Under the pieces are notes generated by a model that was given only the letters and a program-made list of their open reading frames with translations, was not told the DNA's origin and searched no databases. From the NCBI GenBank assembly GCA_035623825.1, contig DASPSR010000008.1, positions 1 to 64,000 on the forward strand: 64,000 nt of DNA, written 5' to 3'. Shown piece after piece: positions 55,226 through 62,453 of this stretch. Made by a program: the position numbers and the translations under genes. Origin of the DNA: Nitrospirota bacterium (GTDB taxonomy: Bacteria; Nitrospirota; UBA9217). Each line of letters starts with the position of its first letter. Within the stretch, counting starts at the first letter, position 1.

Positions 55226-55816
55226 ATGAAAAGGCTTACTCTTGTCATGGTGCTCTTCTTTTTCGCCGTCTCTGCATCAGCCGAGGAGAAGCGGTACACG
55301 GTGCCTCTCGGAGACTCGCCGACCAGCGGTCCGCAGGATGCGCCGGTCACTATCATAGAGTTCCTCGATTTCCAATGACCGCACTGCGTGGCGGCCGGTC
55401 CGACCGTCAAGAAGATCATGGACACGTACAAGGGAAAGATACGGCTCGCGATCAAGAATTATCCGTACATATATCGTGACTACTCCTACCTGGCGGCCGA
55501 GGCGTCGCTCGCGGCGCGGGACCAGGGCAAATACTGGGAGATGCACGACCTCCTGCTCAAGAGGTCTCCGAAACTCGACCGCATGAGCCTCATCGGGTAC
55601 GCGAAGGAGCTTGGGCTCGATGTAAAGGAGTTCACCGATTCTATCGACAGCGAAAGGCATGCGCAGGACATCGAACGTGACGTACAACTCGCTACAGGAA
55701 TGGACATTTACAATACACCCACGTTTTTCATCAACGGCCTCAAGGTCATAGGAGATCGGCCGTTCGCCGATTTTAAGAAGATCATCGACCAGGAGTTGAA
55801 AAATGCCAAACAATAG
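55226..55816 (+). CDS. exported DsbA/thioredoxin-like selenoprotein (UxxC; in-frame TGA at 55376-55378)
   Basis: RBS AGGAGG, signal peptide, GPQDAPVTIIEFLDFQ-TGA-PHC continuing in frame to AARDQGKYWEMHD and TPTFFING; SECIS-like hairpin at 55390-55408. Confidence 0.85.
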
Positions 55817-56882
55817 GCCTATCCACCGGCTCGTCTTAATGCTGTGTTTTACACTTTCGATCGCCCTCTGCTCCTCATATGCCTTTGCCGGGGATCTTGA
55901 GCCGTTCAAGGCCGTTCCCGTGCCGGAAGGGAACCTCCAGACGCCGGAGAAGATAGAACTGGGGAAAAAGCTGTTCTTCGACCGCCGGCTTTCGGGAGAC
56001 GGGACCATGAACTGCGCGACCTGCCACGATCCGGAACAGGCGTTCACGGACGGGCTCGAGATATCTCTCAGCTATCCCACGACGAGAAACTGGCGCAACT
56101 CGCCCACGCTCATGAACGTGGCGTTCCAGAAGTACCTGTTCCACGACGGCCGGGCGCGGACCCTCGAGGAGCAGGCGCTCTTCCCGATGATGTCGGCATT
56201 CGAGATGAACAGGAACCTCGATTTCGTCGAAGAGGTGATCAGATCCGTGCCGGAGTACGTTGACGCGTTCCAGAAGGTCTTCGGCGGCGAGGTCACGCGC
56301 GAGCGCATGGCCATGGCGATCGCCGCGTTCGAAAGGACGCTCGTTTCCCGGAACACGCCGCTCGACCGGTTCCTCAAGGGAGACCAGAAGGCGCTCTCGG
56401 AGGACGCGAAAAAAGGCCTGGCCCTGTTCAAGGGGAAGGGCAAATGCACCGAATGCCACTACGGCGTGAGCCTGTCCGACGACATGTTCCATGCACTGAA
56501 TGTACCGGAGGACCCGGAACACCAGAGCGATCCGCGGATAGCCACCACAAGGAGGTTCGTGGCCAAGGTCTATCATTTTGATGAGTATCGCACGCTCGCG
56601 GAGGACCCGGGCAGGTACCTGATCACCAAGGACAAGAAGGACTGGAAGGCGTTTCGGACCCCCACGCTGCTTGAGATATCACGGACCGCTCCGTTCATGC
56701 ATAACGGCATCTTCCCGTCGCTCGATGACGTCATCGATTTCTTCGACAAGGGAGGAGGGCAGGGGAATACAGCGCTCAAGCCTTTGGGGCTGAGCGCCAG
56801 GGAGAAGCAGTATTTGAAGACGTTCCTCATCGAGGCGCTGACCGGCGAGCCGTTCGTCATAGAGTACCCGAAAGTGCCGTAG
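55803..56882 (+). CDS. di-heme cytochrome c peroxidase/MauG family protein
   Basis: LGKKLFFDRRLS, CATCH, RNSPT, CTECH, FRTPTL..TAPFMHNG; signal peptide. Confidence 0.9.
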   Translation: MPNNRPIHRLVLMLCFTLSIALCSSYAFAGDLEPFKAVPVPEGNLQTPEKIELGKKLFFDRRLSGDGTMNCATCHDPEQAFTDGLEISLSYPTTRNWRNSPTLMNVAFQKYLFHDGRARTLEEQALFPMMSAFEMNRNLDFVEEVIRSVPEYVDAFQKVFGGEVTRERMAMAIAAFERTLVSRNTPLDRFLKGDQKALSEDAKKGLALFKGKGKCTECHYGVSLSDDMFHALNVPEDPEHQSDPRIATTRRFVAKVYHFDEYRTLAEDPGRYLITKDKKDWKAFRTPTLLEISRTAPFMHNGIFPSLDDVIDFFDKGGGQGNTALKPLGLSAREKQYLKTFLIEALTGEPFVIEYPKVP

Positions 56883-56956: not shown

Positions 56957-57718
56957 GTGAAAGTTGCCATCGAGGATATCATCAGGGAAAAACCGCATCT
57001 CACGGACCCGTTCAGATTCTATCAAAAGGCCGTGAAATTCACGGAGTCGGTCAGGGGACTCCGGCTCCCTGCGCGACTGGAGATGCATTCCTATCCGCGT
57101 GAATCCGTCGACAGGGTATTCGAGATATTCTCCGCCATCTTTGAGTTCCCGGAGGGGACCCTCGCGCCGCTGAAACAGGCAATGGGGCTAAATGAGATTG
57201 ACTTGACGCGTCTGCCCCTAGGCGAGATCCCTGCGTTCTCGCTCCCCTATCCCGAGGACGACCTGACAATGCTCCTGTTCCTCATCGGCAAGCCGTACTT
57301 TCTCGGCCTGCGGGAAGCGGTCAGCCTGGACAAGCGGGTATGGGAGGAGGGGAGATGCCCGGTGTGCAGCGCGCAGCCGTCGATAGCATGGATCGAGGGG
57401 GAGGGCCGGCGTCAGATCTCCTGTTCATTCTGCGGTACCGTGGGATATCATGAACGGATCGGTTGCATGATCTGTCAGAACAGTGAGGGGCCGAAACAGA
57501 ATGTTTTCGTCTTCCAGGGCGAATCGGCGTTCAGGCTCAATACGTGCGATGCATGCCGGTCGTATGTAAAGACCATTGATGCCGGCATGCTTTCACGCAT
57601 AGGCCCCGAGGTGGCCGACCTTATGAGCCTTCCTCTTGATATCGTGGTGCAGGAAAAAGGGTTCGAGCGTCGCTCACCGAACCCGATAGGCATGAGGAAA
57701 ATATCGACTCACGGCTAG
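56957..57718 (+). CDS. fdhE: formate dehydrogenase accessory protein FdhE-like
   Basis: CPVC, CSFC, CMIC and CDAC.SYVK motifs; LPLD. Confidence 0.8.
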   Translation: MKVAIEDIIREKPHLTDPFRFYQKAVKFTESVRGLRLPARLEMHSYPRESVDRVFEIFSAIFEFPEGTLAPLKQAMGLNEIDLTRLPLGEIPAFSLPYPEDDLTMLLFLIGKPYFLGLREAVSLDKRVWEEGRCPVCSAQPSIAWIEGEGRRQISCSFCGTVGYHERIGCMICQNSEGPKQNVFVFQGESAFRLNTCDACRSYVKTIDAGMLSRIGPEVADLMSLPLDIVVQEKGFERRSPNPIGMRKISTHG

Positions 57719-57851: not shown

Positions 57852-58298
57852 CTACTTCATGATCTGGTCGATCCACTGCACCAGATCGATTTTTTCCTTG
57901 GGGGCGCCGTCCATGCGCGCGATCTGCGTTCCGTTCTTGAAGACGACAAAGGTGGGCGTGGCCTTCACCATAAAACGCTGAGACAGGCCCGGTTCCGCGT
58001 CCACGTCGACCCTGACCACCTTCAAGCGGCCGGCCTTCCAGGACGCAAGGTCGTTCACGACCGGCTCGACCATACGGCAGTAGCCGCACCACTTGGCCCA
58101 GAATTCCAGAAGCACGAATTCCGGCCACTCGAAGATCTCGCGCTCGAAGGTCGCCGCCGTTGCATTGACGGGCGCCCTGGGGAACTCGAGGGCTTTCTTG
58201 CATTGTCCGCAGGCCGGGTGGCCCTCTAATTTCTCCGGGGGGACCCGGTTGAGCGTCTTGCACGAACTGCAGCGGATGATGATCGACCTGTCCGGCAT
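57852..58298 (-). CDS. trxC: thioredoxin 2 (TrxC-like) with N-terminal zinc finger
   Basis: CSSC..NRVP..CGQC, WCGYC active site; RBS GAGGAG. Confidence 0.85.
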   Translation of the reverse strand: MPDRSIIIRCSSCKTLNRVPPEKLEGHPACGQCKKALEFPRAPVNATAATFEREIFEWPEFVLLEFWAKWCGYCRMVEPVVNDLASWKAGRLKVVRVDVDAEPGLSQRFMVKATPTFVVFKNGTQIARMDGAPKEKIDLVQWIDQIMK

Positions 58299-58403
58299 AT
58301 GCACTCCTCATTTATTATATCATGCCCTCCCGGACATGACGGCGGCGGCCTGCGGACAGGCCTTCTGACTGGCCTCCGGGCCTTTTTCGGTATAAAATAA
58401 AAC

Positions 58404-59498
58404 ATGGATCCGGCATTGCAGAAAAACAGCATACACATAGACGGCTCATACGGCGAGGGCGGGGGGCAGATCCTTCGGACCTCACTTGCGCTGTCGTGCG
58501 TGCTCGGAAGGCCCGTCGAGATCATCAACATCCGCAGGACGCGCAGGAAGCCGGGACTCCAGCCGCAGCATCTTACCGCGGTCAAAGCTGCAGCGACGAT
58601 CAGTCGCGCCCGCGTGGAGGGGGCGGCGCTTTCCTCCACCGCGCTTCGCTTCTCGCCGGGCGCAACCCGCGGAGGCGACTATTTTTTCGACGTGTCCGAA
58701 ACAAAAGGGAGCGCCGGGAGCAGTTCCCTGGTTCTTCAGACGGTCCTGCTTCCGCTCTGTTTTGCCGAAGGTCCCTCCACCGTCACGGTGACCGGAGGCA
58801 CGCACGTGCCCTTGAGCCCGACGTTCCACTATCTGGAGAGGGTATTTCTGCCGACGCTTTCCCGTATCGGCGTCATCGCTGACATCGGCATCGAACAGTG
58901 GGGCTGGTATCCTCGTGGCGGCGGGAAGATCGCTGCAAAGATCGGTGCGAAAAGCGTCCTCAAACCGGTCGAGATCCCGGCGAGGGGAAAGCTGGTCCGC
59001 GTCACCGGGGTCTCGGCAGTCGCAAATCTGCCGAACGACATAGCCGTGCGGCAGCGGAACCAGGCGCTCCATGCGCTCAGCGAGAGAGGCATTGATGCGG
59101 CCGTCGATGTTGTTTCCGCGCCTTCGCCGGGCAAAGGCACGCTCTTCTTTCTGCTCGCGGAGTTTGAAAACATCGCTGCCGGATTTGACGCCCTCGGGGC
59201 GATCGGCAAGCGCGCCGAGGAAGTGGCGGACGAGGCGTGTCATGCGCTGTTTCAATACATGGACGCGGACGGCGCCCTCGATCCGCACCTTGCGGACCAG
59301 TTTATCCCTTACGCTGCGTTCTGTGACGGCACCTCAGAATTCACCACGACCCGCATCACGGGGCATTTGCTCACGAACATCTGGGTGGTAAAGCAGTTCA
59401 TGGTCATGGACACAACGGTTGAAGGCAAGGAAGGCGGGCCGGGCAAAATCACTGTCCGGGGGCACGGGGCGAGGGACCGGGGTAAGGAGTCACCCTGA
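58404..59498 (+). CDS. rtcA: RNA 3'-terminal phosphate cyclase
   Basis: DGSYGEGGGQILR, PGLQPQH, GGTHV, GWYPRGGG, HLADQ, HLLTN. Confidence 0.93.
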   Translation: MDPALQKNSIHIDGSYGEGGGQILRTSLALSCVLGRPVEIINIRRTRRKPGLQPQHLTAVKAAATISRARVEGAALSSTALRFSPGATRGGDYFFDVSETKGSAGSSSLVLQTVLLPLCFAEGPSTVTVTGGTHVPLSPTFHYLERVFLPTLSRIGVIADIGIEQWGWYPRGGGKIAAKIGAKSVLKPVEIPARGKLVRVTGVSAVANLPNDIAVRQRNQALHALSERGIDAAVDVVSAPSPGKGTLFFLLAEFENIAAGFDALGAIGKRAEEVADEACHALFQYMDADGALDPHLADQFIPYAAFCDGTSEFTTTRITGHLLTNIWVVKQFMVMDTTVEGKEGGPGKITVRGHGARDRGKESP

Positions 59499-59608
59499 TA
59501 CGAGAGACAAGGGGCGAAAAAAAGCGACGATCATGGATGGTGGATGAGAGCTCCCCGGGTATGGTATATTGTAAACGTAAAATGGATCTTGTGGCCAAGG
59601 AGGATTTT

Positions 59609-59905
59609 ATGAAACCCGTTCTGACGTACATTGTGCTGGCGCTTGTTGCGATCTCGCTTGCCGGGTGCCTCTATACCAACGTCATTGTCCCTTACGGGAC
59701 AGAGCTCAACAAGACGGAGCTGGGCCATAAAAAGGGAACGGCTTCCACGTACTCCGTGGTGTGGCTCTTTGCCTGGGGCGATGCGGGGGCCGCTGCCGCG
59801 GCGAAGAACGGAGGTATCACAACGCTGACGCACATGGACCGTGAATTGCATGCCGTTCTGTTCGGCATTTACACGCGGCAGACCACGATCGTCTACGGCG
59901 ACTGA
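59609..59905 (+). CDS. TRL-like family small lipoprotein
   Basis: Lipobox LAGC, KKGTAS..LFAWGDAG..AAKNGGIT....D...TIVYGD. Confidence 0.8.
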   Translation: MKPVLTYIVLALVAISLAGCLYTNVIVPYGTELNKTELGHKKGTASTYSVVWLFAWGDAGAAAAAKNGGITTLTHMDRELHAVLFGIYTRQTTIVYGD

Positions 59906-59917
59906 CAGGAGCCCACT

Positions 59918-60253
59918 ATGCGTGCGATCGATCGAATGTCCGTCGTCATCGCTCTGTCCCTGCTCCTGGCGGGATGCGCTGGCGGCGTGTTGTTCCACAG
60001 CGGAATATATTCCCATACGGTGGAGCCGCTCACCTTCAACCGCAATCCGACCGACGTGGAGGGGAGCATGCAGCCGGCAAAAGGCGACATCAGGGAAATA
60101 CAGTACTATGTCAGCGTTCAATGGGGAACGAACGGGATCGGCGATGTCGCCAGGAAGAACGGGATCACTACCGTCTATTACGCCGATCTTGAAAGGCTGC
60201 GAGTACTATTCGGCATATGGCAGCAGGACATCGTGCACGTCTATGGGAGATAG
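59918..60253 (+). CDS. TRL-like family small lipoprotein (paralog)
   Basis: Lipobox LAGC, WG..GIG.VARKNGITTVYYAD..VHVYG. Confidence 0.75.
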   Translation: MRAIDRMSVVIALSLLLAGCAGGVLFHSGIYSHTVEPLTFNRNPTDVEGSMQPAKGDIREIQYYVSVQWGTNGIGDVARKNGITTVYYADLERLRVLFGIWQQDIVHVYGR

Positions 60254-60414: not shown

Positions 60415-60855
60415 ATGCCGATACGTGTATCTGAAGCAATGTGGGAAGGGGATCTGATGAAGGGCAAGGGGAAGATGAGGCTTGGCAGCGGCGCATTCGA
60501 GGGCAGTTATTCCTTCGGGTCCCGTTTCGAGCAGGCGCGAGGCACCAACCCGGAAGAGCTGATCGGAGCGGCGCACGCAGGCTGTTTCAGCATGGCGCTC
60601 TCGATGATGCTGGGCCAGGCAGGATACAAGGTCGAGCAAATCCACACCACTGCGAAGGTGCATATAGATAAGGTCGCCGAGGGATTCAAGATCACGACCA
60701 TCGAACTGGAGACCGTGGGTCAGGTGCCGGGAATCGACGAGCGGACATTCAAGGAGAAGGCAGAGGAGGCCAAGAAGGGATGCCCCGTCTCCATGGCGCT
60801 GACCGGCGTCGATATCAGGCTTACGGCCAGGCTTAAGAAGCTGGCTGCGGCGTGA
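60415..60855 (+). CDS. osmC: OsmC family peroxiredoxin
   Basis: SRFE..GTNPEELIGAAHAGCFSMAL, AKKGCPVS. Confidence 0.93.
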   Translation: MPIRVSEAMWEGDLMKGKGKMRLGSGAFEGSYSFGSRFEQARGTNPEELIGAAHAGCFSMALSMMLGQAGYKVEQIHTTAKVHIDKVAEGFKITTIELETVGQVPGIDERTFKEKAEEAKKGCPVSMALTGVDIRLTARLKKLAAA

Positions 60856-60912: not shown

Positions 60913-62016
60913 TTACCGCCAGTTTCTTGTGTCGGTGTGACAGCCCGAAGACGTATTCGTGCAGGTAGTTCCGTTATAGTTCAGCCAGCTATTGGTCGAT
61001 GCCGAGGCAGTCGCCGAGGAGATCACGTGCGAACGCAGGTCGGGAAAATGGAATGGCGCGTTCGAAAGCTTGATCGTGTCATGGCAGGAAATGCAGGTAA
61101 TGCCCTGTTGTACGGCATGAAAGTAATGTTGCCCGGAAAAATAGCCGTTATACAGCGTGTTGCCATAAATATGGCATAAGAAACACTGTGTCGTGTCGCT
61201 GTAATTATAACTGCTCCCATTATACCAGTCCGGCGTCGCGGACGGGTCCGATGTCCAGGTGCTCGACGAGGTGACCTGAGTAAAAATATCCGGGGGAATC
61301 GTACGGATGCTCTGGGCCCTCGGGCCGCCGTGGCAGCTCACGTTTGCGCATGTCGCGCCGGTCCCTGTCCCGAATGACCCTATCCCTGTTTCCGCGTTAT
61401 AGGCAGAATCAAAAATGACCTCGACAATCCCGTCCAAATGCTGATCGCATGTCCGGTTATGGCAGGTCTCGCACGTGACGCCGGAGAGCGCCATGTGCTT
61501 GGCATGTTTGCCAGGAAGGTTCGGGTAGACGTTCCCTGCTGGCGCTAAACCGTCAGGCGGTATCCCATGGCAGGTGCCGCAGCTTGGTGAGGTCGGGATC
61601 GTCGGATGGCACTTCGTGCAGGAGGGGCCGCTTTCCGGAACGCCCGTGAGGTTGGCGCCGTGGCAGTACATGTTTGCACAGCCGGTCGTACCGTTCGCCA
61701 GTGCGAAAGTGCCATGGTTGGAGCAGGCGTCTCCCATCCACCCGGCCGGGTGGATGTTCGTGACTCCTCCCATGTGGCAGCTGGTGCAGGAGACACCGGA
61801 TATCCCGCCGGCAAAATCGGGTCCATGGCAGCCTGAACAAGAATTGAGGTTTGATTCGGCTGCGTCCATATGGGCCGCAGGAAGCCAGTTGGCCGCGTGG
61901 CTGCCCGTGTCCGGATTGAACGGTGATTGCGTGTTCGGGTCGCTGCAGCCGATGAGCAGCGCCGCCAGCACTGGAAGACCAAAGGACAGCAACTTCGCCG
62001 TTCTTATTTGTGGCAT
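60913..62016 (-). CDS. multiheme c-type cytochrome lipoprotein (about 10 heme motifs), ExtD-like
   Basis: Lipobox LIGC; 7 CXXCH, 2 CX4CH and 1 CX6CH motifs. Confidence 0.88.
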   Translation of the reverse strand: MPQIRTAKLLSFGLPVLAALLIGCSDPNTQSPFNPDTGSHAANWLPAAHMDAAESNLNSCSGCHGPDFAGGISGVSCTSCHMGGVTNIHPAGWMGDACSNHGTFALANGTTGCANMYCHGANLTGVPESGPSCTKCHPTIPTSPSCGTCHGIPPDGLAPAGNVYPNLPGKHAKHMALSGVTCETCHNRTCDQHLDGIVEVIFDSAYNAETGIGSFGTGTGATCANVSCHGGPRAQSIRTIPPDIFTQVTSSSTWTSDPSATPDWYNGSSYNYSDTTQCFLCHIYGNTLYNGYFSGQHYFHAVQQGITCISCHDTIKLSNAPFHFPDLRSHVISSATASASTNSWLNYNGTTCTNTSSGCHTDTRNWR

Positions 62017-62453
62017 TCCTTGCACCTCTCGTTGTTCTGGCGGCCGTGGCAGGGGAAACAGGACGCCGGATTGATCCTGCCATCGATCTGGTGCTGCGTG
62101 AGGTAATCGCCCCGGTGGGGCAGAGCCCGATCGGGAGAATCCTTGTACTTATCGCTCGGCTTGACCTCTTCGTTGTTCGCGTGGCAGTCGGCGCAGAAGG
62201 CTTCCGCGTGGCAGATATCGCAGGCCTGTCTCTGCTGGTCCGCGTAGAACTTGTGACGCGTGATGAAGTCCGGGGTGTGGTTCATCGCCGCGCGCCAGTC
62301 TGTGTGACAGTCAGCGCAGATGGGCATGGCCTCCACTTCCACCGGATGTTTTTTCGCGATGCTCGCGGTCTGGACGCAGGCGGCGAACAGCGTCGCCGCG
62401 AGCGCCGCCATCAGAATGCCGAGAGTAAGTAGTTTGGACGGGATGCTCTTCAT
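62004..62453 (-). CDS. pentaheme c-type cytochrome lipoprotein, ExtC-like
   Basis: Lipobox FAAC; CADCH, CDICH, CADCH, CFPCH, CKECH. Confidence 0.9.
   Translation of the reverse strand: MKSIPSKLLTLGILMAALAATLFAACVQTASIAKKHPVEVEAMPICADCHTDWRAAMNHTPDFITRHKFYADQQRQACDICHAEAFCADCHANNEEVKPSDKYKDSPDRALPHRGDYLTQHQIDGRINPASCFPCHGRQNNERCKECHK

Follow-up and report, generated by a model that had tools for sequence, protein, structure and literature searches.

What is left for a di-haem protein of the peroxidase fold to do when the ligand of its second haem and the Trp between its haems have both been replaced, and why is it encoded in overlap with a selenoprotein? This question is raised by a locus in a 64,000-nt stretch of DNA of a Nitrospirota bacterium (contig DASPSR010000008.1, assembly GCA_035623825.1, positions 1 to 64,000; hereafter the window). 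Here, a protein of the bacterial cytochrome c peroxidase (bCcP)/MauG fold (55803..56882, + strand, 359 aa) follows a selenocysteine (Sec)-containing DsbA-like periplasmic oxidoreductase, which we call seleno-DsbA, and is itself followed by an FdhE-like accessory protein of formate dehydrogenase (FDH). We found that the two replacements characterize a whole clade of di-haem proteins, that this clade is tied to seleno-DsbA, and that its presence goes along with a Cys pair in the FDH subunit FdnG. As a tentative answer we favour a peroxide-responsive haem/selenol relay that would set a redox switch of FDH.

Haem motifs and the two replaced residues

The open reading frame (ORF) of the di-haem protein is open throughout, starts with a Sec-type signal peptide and matched the Pfam family CCP_MauG (PF03150) with 179.4 bits (cut-off 25.6, E 8.8e-53). 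An AlphaFold2 model, built from a 123-row alignment and without haem, reached a mean pLDDT of 95 and a pTM of 0.89. When the model was searched with Foldseek, the best match was 4aam (E 5.5e-24) and MbnH 6e1c was found with E 3e-20; TM-scores against 4aam, 2c1v and 6e1c were 0.74-0.76, and the top matches were bCcPs, MbnH and MauG. Two narrower NCBIfam families stayed below their cut-offs, namely TTQ_mauG (TIGR03791, the best match; 241 bits, cut-off 443.85) and the MbnH family TIGR04039 (200.1 bits, cut-off 362.85).

The motif of the peroxidatic haem 1, CATCH (C71-H75, 56013..56027, + strand), was invariant in a close set of 121 sequences (the query and its 120 best homologues, 73-94% identity) and in the alignment given to AlphaFold2. 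The haem-2 motif CTECH (C215-H219, 56445..56459, + strand) was likewise invariant in both, and haem 2 is therefore retained.

The initial annotation had claimed that the protein reads FHDGRA in place of FWDGRA and has Phe 14 residues after the His of its PFMH motif, and thus misses both the inter-haem Trp and the distal Met or Tyr ligand. Both readings were borne out. In a HMMER alignment with P. aeruginosa CcP 1eb7, whose N-terminal domain aligned without gaps, His114 (codon 56142..56144, + strand) stands on W94, and Gln124, Glu134, Asn99 and Tyr91 stand on Q104, E114, N79 and H71, respectively. In the C-terminal domain, His300 of PFMH corresponds to H261 and Phe314 (codon 56742..56744, + strand) to M275, the distal ligand position of haem 2, which is Met in CcPs and Tyr in MbnH-type relatives. 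Phe314 aligned with the terminal Met of '..vaim' or '..vkim' in 1eb7, 2c1u and 4aal, and lies opposite the Tyr of MbnH 6e1c ('...LDDVIDFF' vs '...LEEVIDIY'). Thus, where a canonical family member would have Trp and Met or Tyr, the sequence alignments give His114 and Phe314. For the 1eb7 residues named here we assume the functional roles generally ascribed to them, including that of N79 in the Ca site; Asn99 is invariant in the clade described below, and the backbone Ca2+ ligands are not of a kind that can be read from sequence. The best PDB matches over the whole length were canonical bCcPs (E 5.6e-50), and that of the C-terminal half was MbnH 6e1c (E 8.2e-11).

Conservation and descent of the clade

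Within the close set, position 114 was occupied by His (97), Phe (9), Leu (5), Ser (4), Tyr (3), Gln (2) and Cys (1), and position 314 by Phe (115), Leu (5) and Tyr (1). Since Trp is missing at position 114 in 121/121 sequences and position 314 is Phe or Leu in 120/121, the replacements are not due to chance. We then assembled a clade set of 160 loci, 80 from species genomes and 80 from metagenomes; a metagenome scan with the Tyr-keeping sister P0124 returned mainly members of the main clade (59-67% identity), which were used as extra loci. Position 114 in these 160 loci was His in 130, Tyr in 11, Trp in 10, Phe in 3, and Gln, Arg and Ser in 2 each. Position 314 was Phe (132), Leu (10), Val (6), Ile (4) or Met (1), residues we count as non-ligand types (153 together), and Tyr in the remaining 7.

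Relatives outside the clade look different: 114 of 131 have Trp at the first position and 122 of 131 have Tyr at the second. Likewise, when representatives of 50% clusters sharing 30-46% identity were aligned, 120 of the 149 alignments showed Trp combined with Tyr. Measured by positional entropy, the variability of positions 114 and 314 ranks at the 64th and 60th percentile in the clade, compared to the 17th and 10th in the relatives. Gln124, Glu134, Asn99, Tyr91, Lys255 and both haem motifs were invariant in 160/160 clade sequences. We read this pattern as a peroxidatic haem-1 site and a haem 2 that are both kept, with a sixth ligand and a Trp bridge that would no longer be under selection. 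We also looked for a substitute ligand, but no His, Met, Lys, Cys or Tyr residue was both conserved among the non-Tyr members and missing from the Tyr members; the only positions conserved in the former and not in the latter were Q46 and G213, neither of which is of a ligand type.

In a FastTree phylogeny of the 160 clade sequences, P0124 and 18 outgroups, the clade was recovered as a single group (support 0.946) with basal lineages that retain the Tyr. This agrees with the distinct non-canonical subfamily proposed in the initial annotation. Parsimony gave at least three changes at position 314 and at least two at position 114 within the clade, and the Trp and the Tyr were apparently lost separately and more than once. 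The ancestral states are only indicative because the outgroups were picked by hand. Because the nearest relatives outside the clade carry Trp and Tyr, the clade descends from the MauG/MbnH (His/Tyr) branch and not from the His/Met CcPs, so the lost ligand was Tyr. The earlier claim of a missing 'Met/Tyr' ligand therefore stands as to the absence and is narrowed as to the residue. Of the 301 Nitrospirota genomes sampled, 82 yielded a member of the clade, and further members came from records of Desulfobulbaceae.

Comparison with known bCcP/MauG proteins

In the available text of a 2025 paper, the E haem is described as ligated by His-Met in canonical bCcPs and by His-Tyr in MauG-type proteins, and BthA as the exception to an otherwise high conservation of the inter-haem Trp and of the Ca site; the His/Met enzymes detoxify peroxide and the His/Tyr enzymes use it as an oxidant. 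The present clade fits neither type of ligation, with Met in 1 and Tyr in 7 of its 160 members (Tyr in 122/131 relatives), and Trp is found in 10 of the 160. With the canonical CcPs 1eb7, 2c1u and MacA 4aal our protein shares the N-terminal peroxidatic domain, including the equivalents of Q104, E114 and N79, but it has no M275, no W94 and Tyr91 for H71, and the phylogeny places it within His/Tyr relatives.

MbnH (6e1c, TIGR04039) has the same fold and a similar length, is the best match of the C-terminal half, shares the PYMH...(L)(D/E)(D/E)VIDxx motif and is likewise encoded beside its presumed protein partner. It differs in having Tyr where we find Phe314, Trp where we find His, and MbnP instead of a seleno-DsbA as partner, and our protein scores under the cut-off of its family (200 vs 363). 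The similarity to MauG (3l4m, TIGR03791) comprises the di-haem fold, the conserved distal Gln/Glu region and the best NCBIfam match, again below the cut-off of 443.85. However, the His/Tyr haem and the Trp that MauG uses for bis-Fe(IV), according to the descriptions available, are absent here, and no mau genes were present near the di-haem gene in the window. Burkholderia BthA (6nx0), which is a distant relative (E 2.8e-15), also misses the inter-haem Trp (Ser257), and its function is given as not known in the accessible part of its description (PMC6405878). In contrast to our protein, which has lost the Tyr and kept Asn99, BthA is described there as keeping His/Tyr, forming bis-Fe(IV) and having no Ca site.

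Among the papers we could search, subscription journals being outside the coverage, none dealt with a bCcP/MauG member devoid of both the Met and the Tyr ligand or with a pairing with a seleno-DsbA. A large and strongly conserved clade that has neither ligand, and in most members no Trp, would add a third type to the bCcP/MauG proteins. New are the analysis of the replaced ligand and Trp, the origin of the clade in the His/Tyr branch, the inverted conservation of the two positions and the correlation with a Cys pair in FdnG (see below).

A selenocysteine-containing DsbA-like partner

The upstream ORF (55226..55816, + strand) contains a single in-frame TGA (55376-55378), and read-through gives a DsbA-like protein of 196 aa with a signal peptide and the active site U51-P-H-C54. 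This copies CPHC, the oxidising motif of DsbA. The protein matched Pfam Thioredoxin_4 (5e-28) and DSBA (1.4e-17) and remained below the cut-off of NF041057 (86.6 vs 190). The overlap of its end with the start of the di-haem gene, which the initial annotation had pointed out, amounts to 14 nt. The coupling to a selenoprotein, also claimed there, proved to be general: in each of the 134 loci for which 700 nt or more of upstream sequence were available, the di-haem gene follows a DsbA-like gene in which an in-frame stop occupies the first active-site position. This stop was TGA in 131/131 full-length homologues aligned as a single high-scoring segment pair. Since the basal members that keep the Tyr already have the seleno-DsbA, the pairing is older than the loss of the ligand. 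SelB exceeded its cut-off in five of five complete relatives that carry the pair, and in the genome of the window both the DsbA-like gene and fdnG contain an in-frame TGA.

Of the 120 best database matches of the DsbA-like protein, 117 cover only about 70% of it and apparently start after the TGA; among the full-length entries one reads Cys at the Sec site and two read Trp. The latter two, P0274 and P0276 ('FQWPHC'), evidently had the Sec codon rendered as Trp by a caller using a code with TGA=W.

DsbA-like and DsbG-like selenoproteins with UxxC are known from computational surveys (PMC1794560; review PMC13188914), which mention neither a function nor a di-haem partner in the text available. 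They share the Thioredoxin_4/DSBA fold and UxxC with the protein described here. The fixed partnership would thus give a selenoprotein family without known function a concrete partner.

On the opposite strand, two long ORFs of 256 aa (55277-56047) and 233 aa (55875-56576) run across the genes of the DsbA-like and the di-haem protein. Antisense ORFs of a similar kind form one cluster that spans 39 loci. Most likely, these ORFs are the shadow of a conserved sense frame in GC-rich DNA.

Genomic neighbourhood and formate dehydrogenase

The gene following the di-haem gene (56957..57718, + strand) encodes the FdhE-like protein of 253 aa with four CXXC motifs. It matched Pfam FdhE_C (2.1e-11), with 44.3 bits for PF24860 (above the cut-off of 27) and 60.1 bits for TIGR01562 (below the cut-off of 187.65), and it is the only FdhE homologue that we found in its assembly. 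The neighbourhood check suggested with the initial annotation thus gave seleno-DsbA at every locus with sufficient flank; of the 126 loci with at least 900 nt downstream, 59 have fdhE after the pair. In one complete relative genome the same dsbA(U)-ccp-fdhE trio is distant from the FDH of that genome.

Furthermore, we examined 98 loci with at least 3 kb of upstream sequence. FdnH (with the FDH-N transmembrane domain) was encoded in 70 of these, FdnG in 68, FdnI in 39, NrfD in 31 and acs in 14; either FdnI or NrfD was present in 70. When both flanks were available, fdnH, fdhE or both lay beside the pair in 75 of 88 loci. FdhD and MobB were found nearby on the opposite strand in Desulfocapsa-type loci. 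In the genome of the window, fdnG(TGA)-fdnH-fdnI is located on another contig without the pair. The earlier proposal of a tie to a periplasmic Mo/W enzyme is supported by these data, whereas the role of 'maturase' suggested with it is less apt than that of a redox relay acting on the Cys pair of FdnG. No donor cytochrome was conserved in the neighbourhood of the pair across the loci.

The genome also encodes a canonical CcP (contig C42, L082 1180-2403, 407-aa ORF) that has the inter-haem Trp and carries Met 14 residues after the His of PYFH, and because of this the di-haem protein is not the housekeeping peroxidase. DsbB was not found in this genome. The only match of the DsbB/VKOR type was a VKOR homologue, a 32.5-bit domain in a 361-aa frame (contig C16, L163) that is possibly a VKOR-thioredoxin fusion. 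We considered the di-haem protein as a replacement for DsbB; given the VKOR homologue, this idea is not compelling despite the missing DsbB.

A Cys pair in FdnG accompanies the gene pair

Two Cys residues were invariant in all 62 FdnG sequences that we collected, 61 from loci of the pair and one from the genome of the window. According to a HMMER alignment, with residues counted by hand, they correspond to C845 and C872 of D. vulgaris FdhA (6sdv/6sdr). In the available text of three sources (PMC13397495; bioRxiv 10.1101/2024.01.10.571421; PMC13066108), C845-C872 is described as an allosteric surface disulfide of which the reduction activates the enzyme and the closed form keeps its O2 stability; PMC13397495 cites Oliveira et al. 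2024 for this switch of FdhAB. No in vivo writer, eraser or physiological reductant of C845-C872 is named in the accessible text of these FDH papers. The enzymes considered here have Cys at exactly the aligned positions but are of the membrane-bound FdnGHI or FdnGH-NrfD type, in which the Cys pair would be a putative disulfide.

To define the distribution we used an even sample of 301 Nitrospirota genomes, 120 of which gave matches to a piece of FdnG at E 1e-40 or better. FdnG orthologues (at least 59% identity) were taken from 40 of the 74 genomes with both FdnG and the di-haem gene, picked to span 61-77% identity, and from all 25 genomes where no di-haem gene was found. Both Cys were present in 40/40 genomes with the di-haem gene compared to 16/25 in which it was not found; one or both Cys were lost in 0/40 and 9/25, respectively. 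Contrasts were also seen within genera (G181 vs G178 in g79 and G263 vs G157 in g73). Of 15 paralogous FDHs (42-53% identity), none had either Cys. The association is one-way, as the Cys pair also turns up where the gene pair does not.

In family f26 (L186, L188-L193), FdnG has both switch Cys in 7/7 cases and no member of the di-haem clade was found. Another factor may serve the Cys pair in this family.

A possible haem/selenol relay and its alternatives

We tentatively propose that the pair forms a peroxide-responsive haem/selenol relay that sets the redox switch of FDH. The proposal builds on the observed sequence features, fold, gene linkage and Cys-pair correlation, from which we infer the ligation of the haems, a reaction with peroxide, the path of the electrons and a target, FdnG. 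A lineage of the MauG/MbnH branch would have become the dedicated redox partner of a Sec-containing DsbA with U-P-H-C, and after this pairing the inter-haem Trp and the Tyr ligand of haem 2 may have been released from selection. Haem 1 with its peroxidatic pocket (Gln124, Glu134 and the Ca-site residue Asn99) would react with H2O2, and the oxidising equivalents would leave via haem 2, predicted to be five-coordinate or loosely ligated, to the Sec and Cys of the DsbA-like protein, which would form a selenenylsulfide. Oxidised seleno-DsbA could then close the surface Cys pair of the periplasmic Sec-containing FdnG (the equivalent of C845-C872), and the closed form would represent a protected resting state when oxidant appears. 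Of the two functions put forward in the initial annotation, a Sec-thiol/haem redox relay or a maturase, the former is the more apt. If so, the pair would be a candidate writer or eraser of the FDH switch in vivo, which bears on oxygen-tolerant CO2-reducing FDHs.

A bolder variant is that the vacant site of haem 2 is transiently filled by the selenolate of Sec51 of the partner, giving a His/selenocysteinate c-type haem capable of inner-sphere Se-S/S-S chemistry. Comparable chemistry is performed by the Cys-ligated haems of SoxAX and TsdA. Such ligation would account for the dispensable Tyr and Trp, for the near-universal Sec (one Cys form among the 120 matches listed) and for the fact that the genes are never apart, and it would be the first natural selenolate-haem; we regard it as a long shot.

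Several observations weigh against a relay acting on FDH. The seven clade members with Tyr still have the seleno-DsbA, so the pairing does not require the loss of the ligand. Lys255, invariant in 160/160 sequences and located in a clade-specific insertion, is a candidate for an alternative ligand of haem 2. The fold of 55376-55440, where a selenocysteine insertion sequence was sought, was no better than that of shuffled sequences (z 0.87), and SelA (TIGR00474), SelB (TIGR00475) and SelB-wing_3 were not found in the 89.65%-complete assembly of this genome, LepA being the best GTPase match examined in the search for SelB; given the SelB of the five complete relatives, both genes probably lie in the unassembled part. 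In 28/98 loci as well as in the window, FDH genes are not adjacent to the pair, and acs and actP are found upstream of it in the window. A general oxidase of DsbA is already present, since the genome has the VKOR homologue. As for FdnG, the association has a Fisher p of 6e-5 that ignores relatedness and includes some incomplete genomes among those scored as 'not found', and we selected the 40 pair-bearing genomes out of 74 so as to cover 61-77% identity. In addition, the Cys pair occurs without the gene pair in the 16 of 25 genomes mentioned above, among them all seven of one family, and also in the enzymes of D. vulgaris and D. gigas. Finally, the redox direction between the relay and FdnG may be the reverse of the one drawn here, which makes a reductive system a serious rival.

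In this reductive version, which we consider unlikely but the strongest of the alternatives, the same couple would serve in reduction or pure electron transfer: the di-haem cytochrome, supposed to be of low potential, would take electrons from the pool of periplasmic cytochromes and reduce the Se-S bond of seleno-DsbA, which in turn would reopen the FdnG disulfide or repair an oxidised active-site Sec, and peroxide would not be a substrate. As far as linkage is concerned, this version draws on the same evidence as the peroxide relay. Moreover, D. vulgaris FdhAB needs C845-C872 reduced for activity and the papers cited above, as far as their text is accessible, name no physiological reductant; the loss of Met or Tyr would also be expected to shift the potential of haem 2, going by the contrast between His-Met and His-Tyr proteins in the available text of the 2025 paper. 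However, a pure electron carrier would have no need for the invariant Gln124 and Glu134 of the peroxidatic pocket, a conserved donor cytochrome is missing from the neighbourhood, and the U-P-H-C site copies an oxidising motif.

The loci without adjacent FDH genes, the window included, could instead point to a general periplasmic system, either peroxide-driven disulfide making or seleno-DsbA-dependent peroxide scavenging, that is found near FDH through a shared need under micro-oxic conditions. The missing DsbB and the 16 genomes with the FdnG Cys pair alone would fit such a system too. Against this, fdhE travels with the pair even far from FDH, Cys loss in FdnG was confined to genomes where the pair was not found (9/25 vs 0/40), and the VKOR homologue and the canonical CcP already cover the general roles; we hold this explanation, which is a serious rival too, to be unlikely.

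Membership in the MauG/MbnH branch, the members of which act on adjacently encoded proteins in the descriptions available, would allow for an enzyme that uses H2O2 to modify seleno-DsbA or FDH covalently, by a cross-link or an oxidised residue. This is improbable, as the Tyr ligand has been lost and most members have no Trp either, both residues being tied to the bis-Fe(IV) oxidant in the accessible accounts (although BthA works without the Trp), and the NCBIfam scores are far under the MauG and MbnH cut-offs. Least probable of all is an ordinary CcP with haem 2 ligated by a residue recruited from elsewhere: canonical bCcPs are the best whole-length PDB matches (5.6e-50) and Lys255, Lys276 and Tyr91 vary little or not at all within the clade, but no candidate ligand separates non-Tyr from Tyr members, the Met/Tyr helix aligns without gaps and offers Phe, a canonical CcP is encoded in the same genome, and the Sec-DsbA linkage holds at 134/134 loci.

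Other genes downstream of the trio

Convergent to fdhE lies a thioredoxin-2-type gene with an N-terminal zinc ribbon (57852-58304, - strand), which was found in the same place in 7 of the 80 loci from genomes. A cytoplasmic redox link via this gene is possible. Downstream of the trio, RtcA, an RNA 3'-phosphate cyclase, is encoded at 58404-59498 (+ strand), and the region of 59537-60253 and 60415-60855 (both + strand) harbours two tandem TRL-like small exported proteins and an OsmC-like peroxiredoxin. RtcA and TRL recur only in a few close relatives. Further on, an ORF of 370 aa (60913-62025, - strand) has many CXXCH- and CXXXCH-like motifs and a match to Cytochrome_C7 below the cut-off (1.2e-4); it probably encodes an exported multihaem cytochrome.

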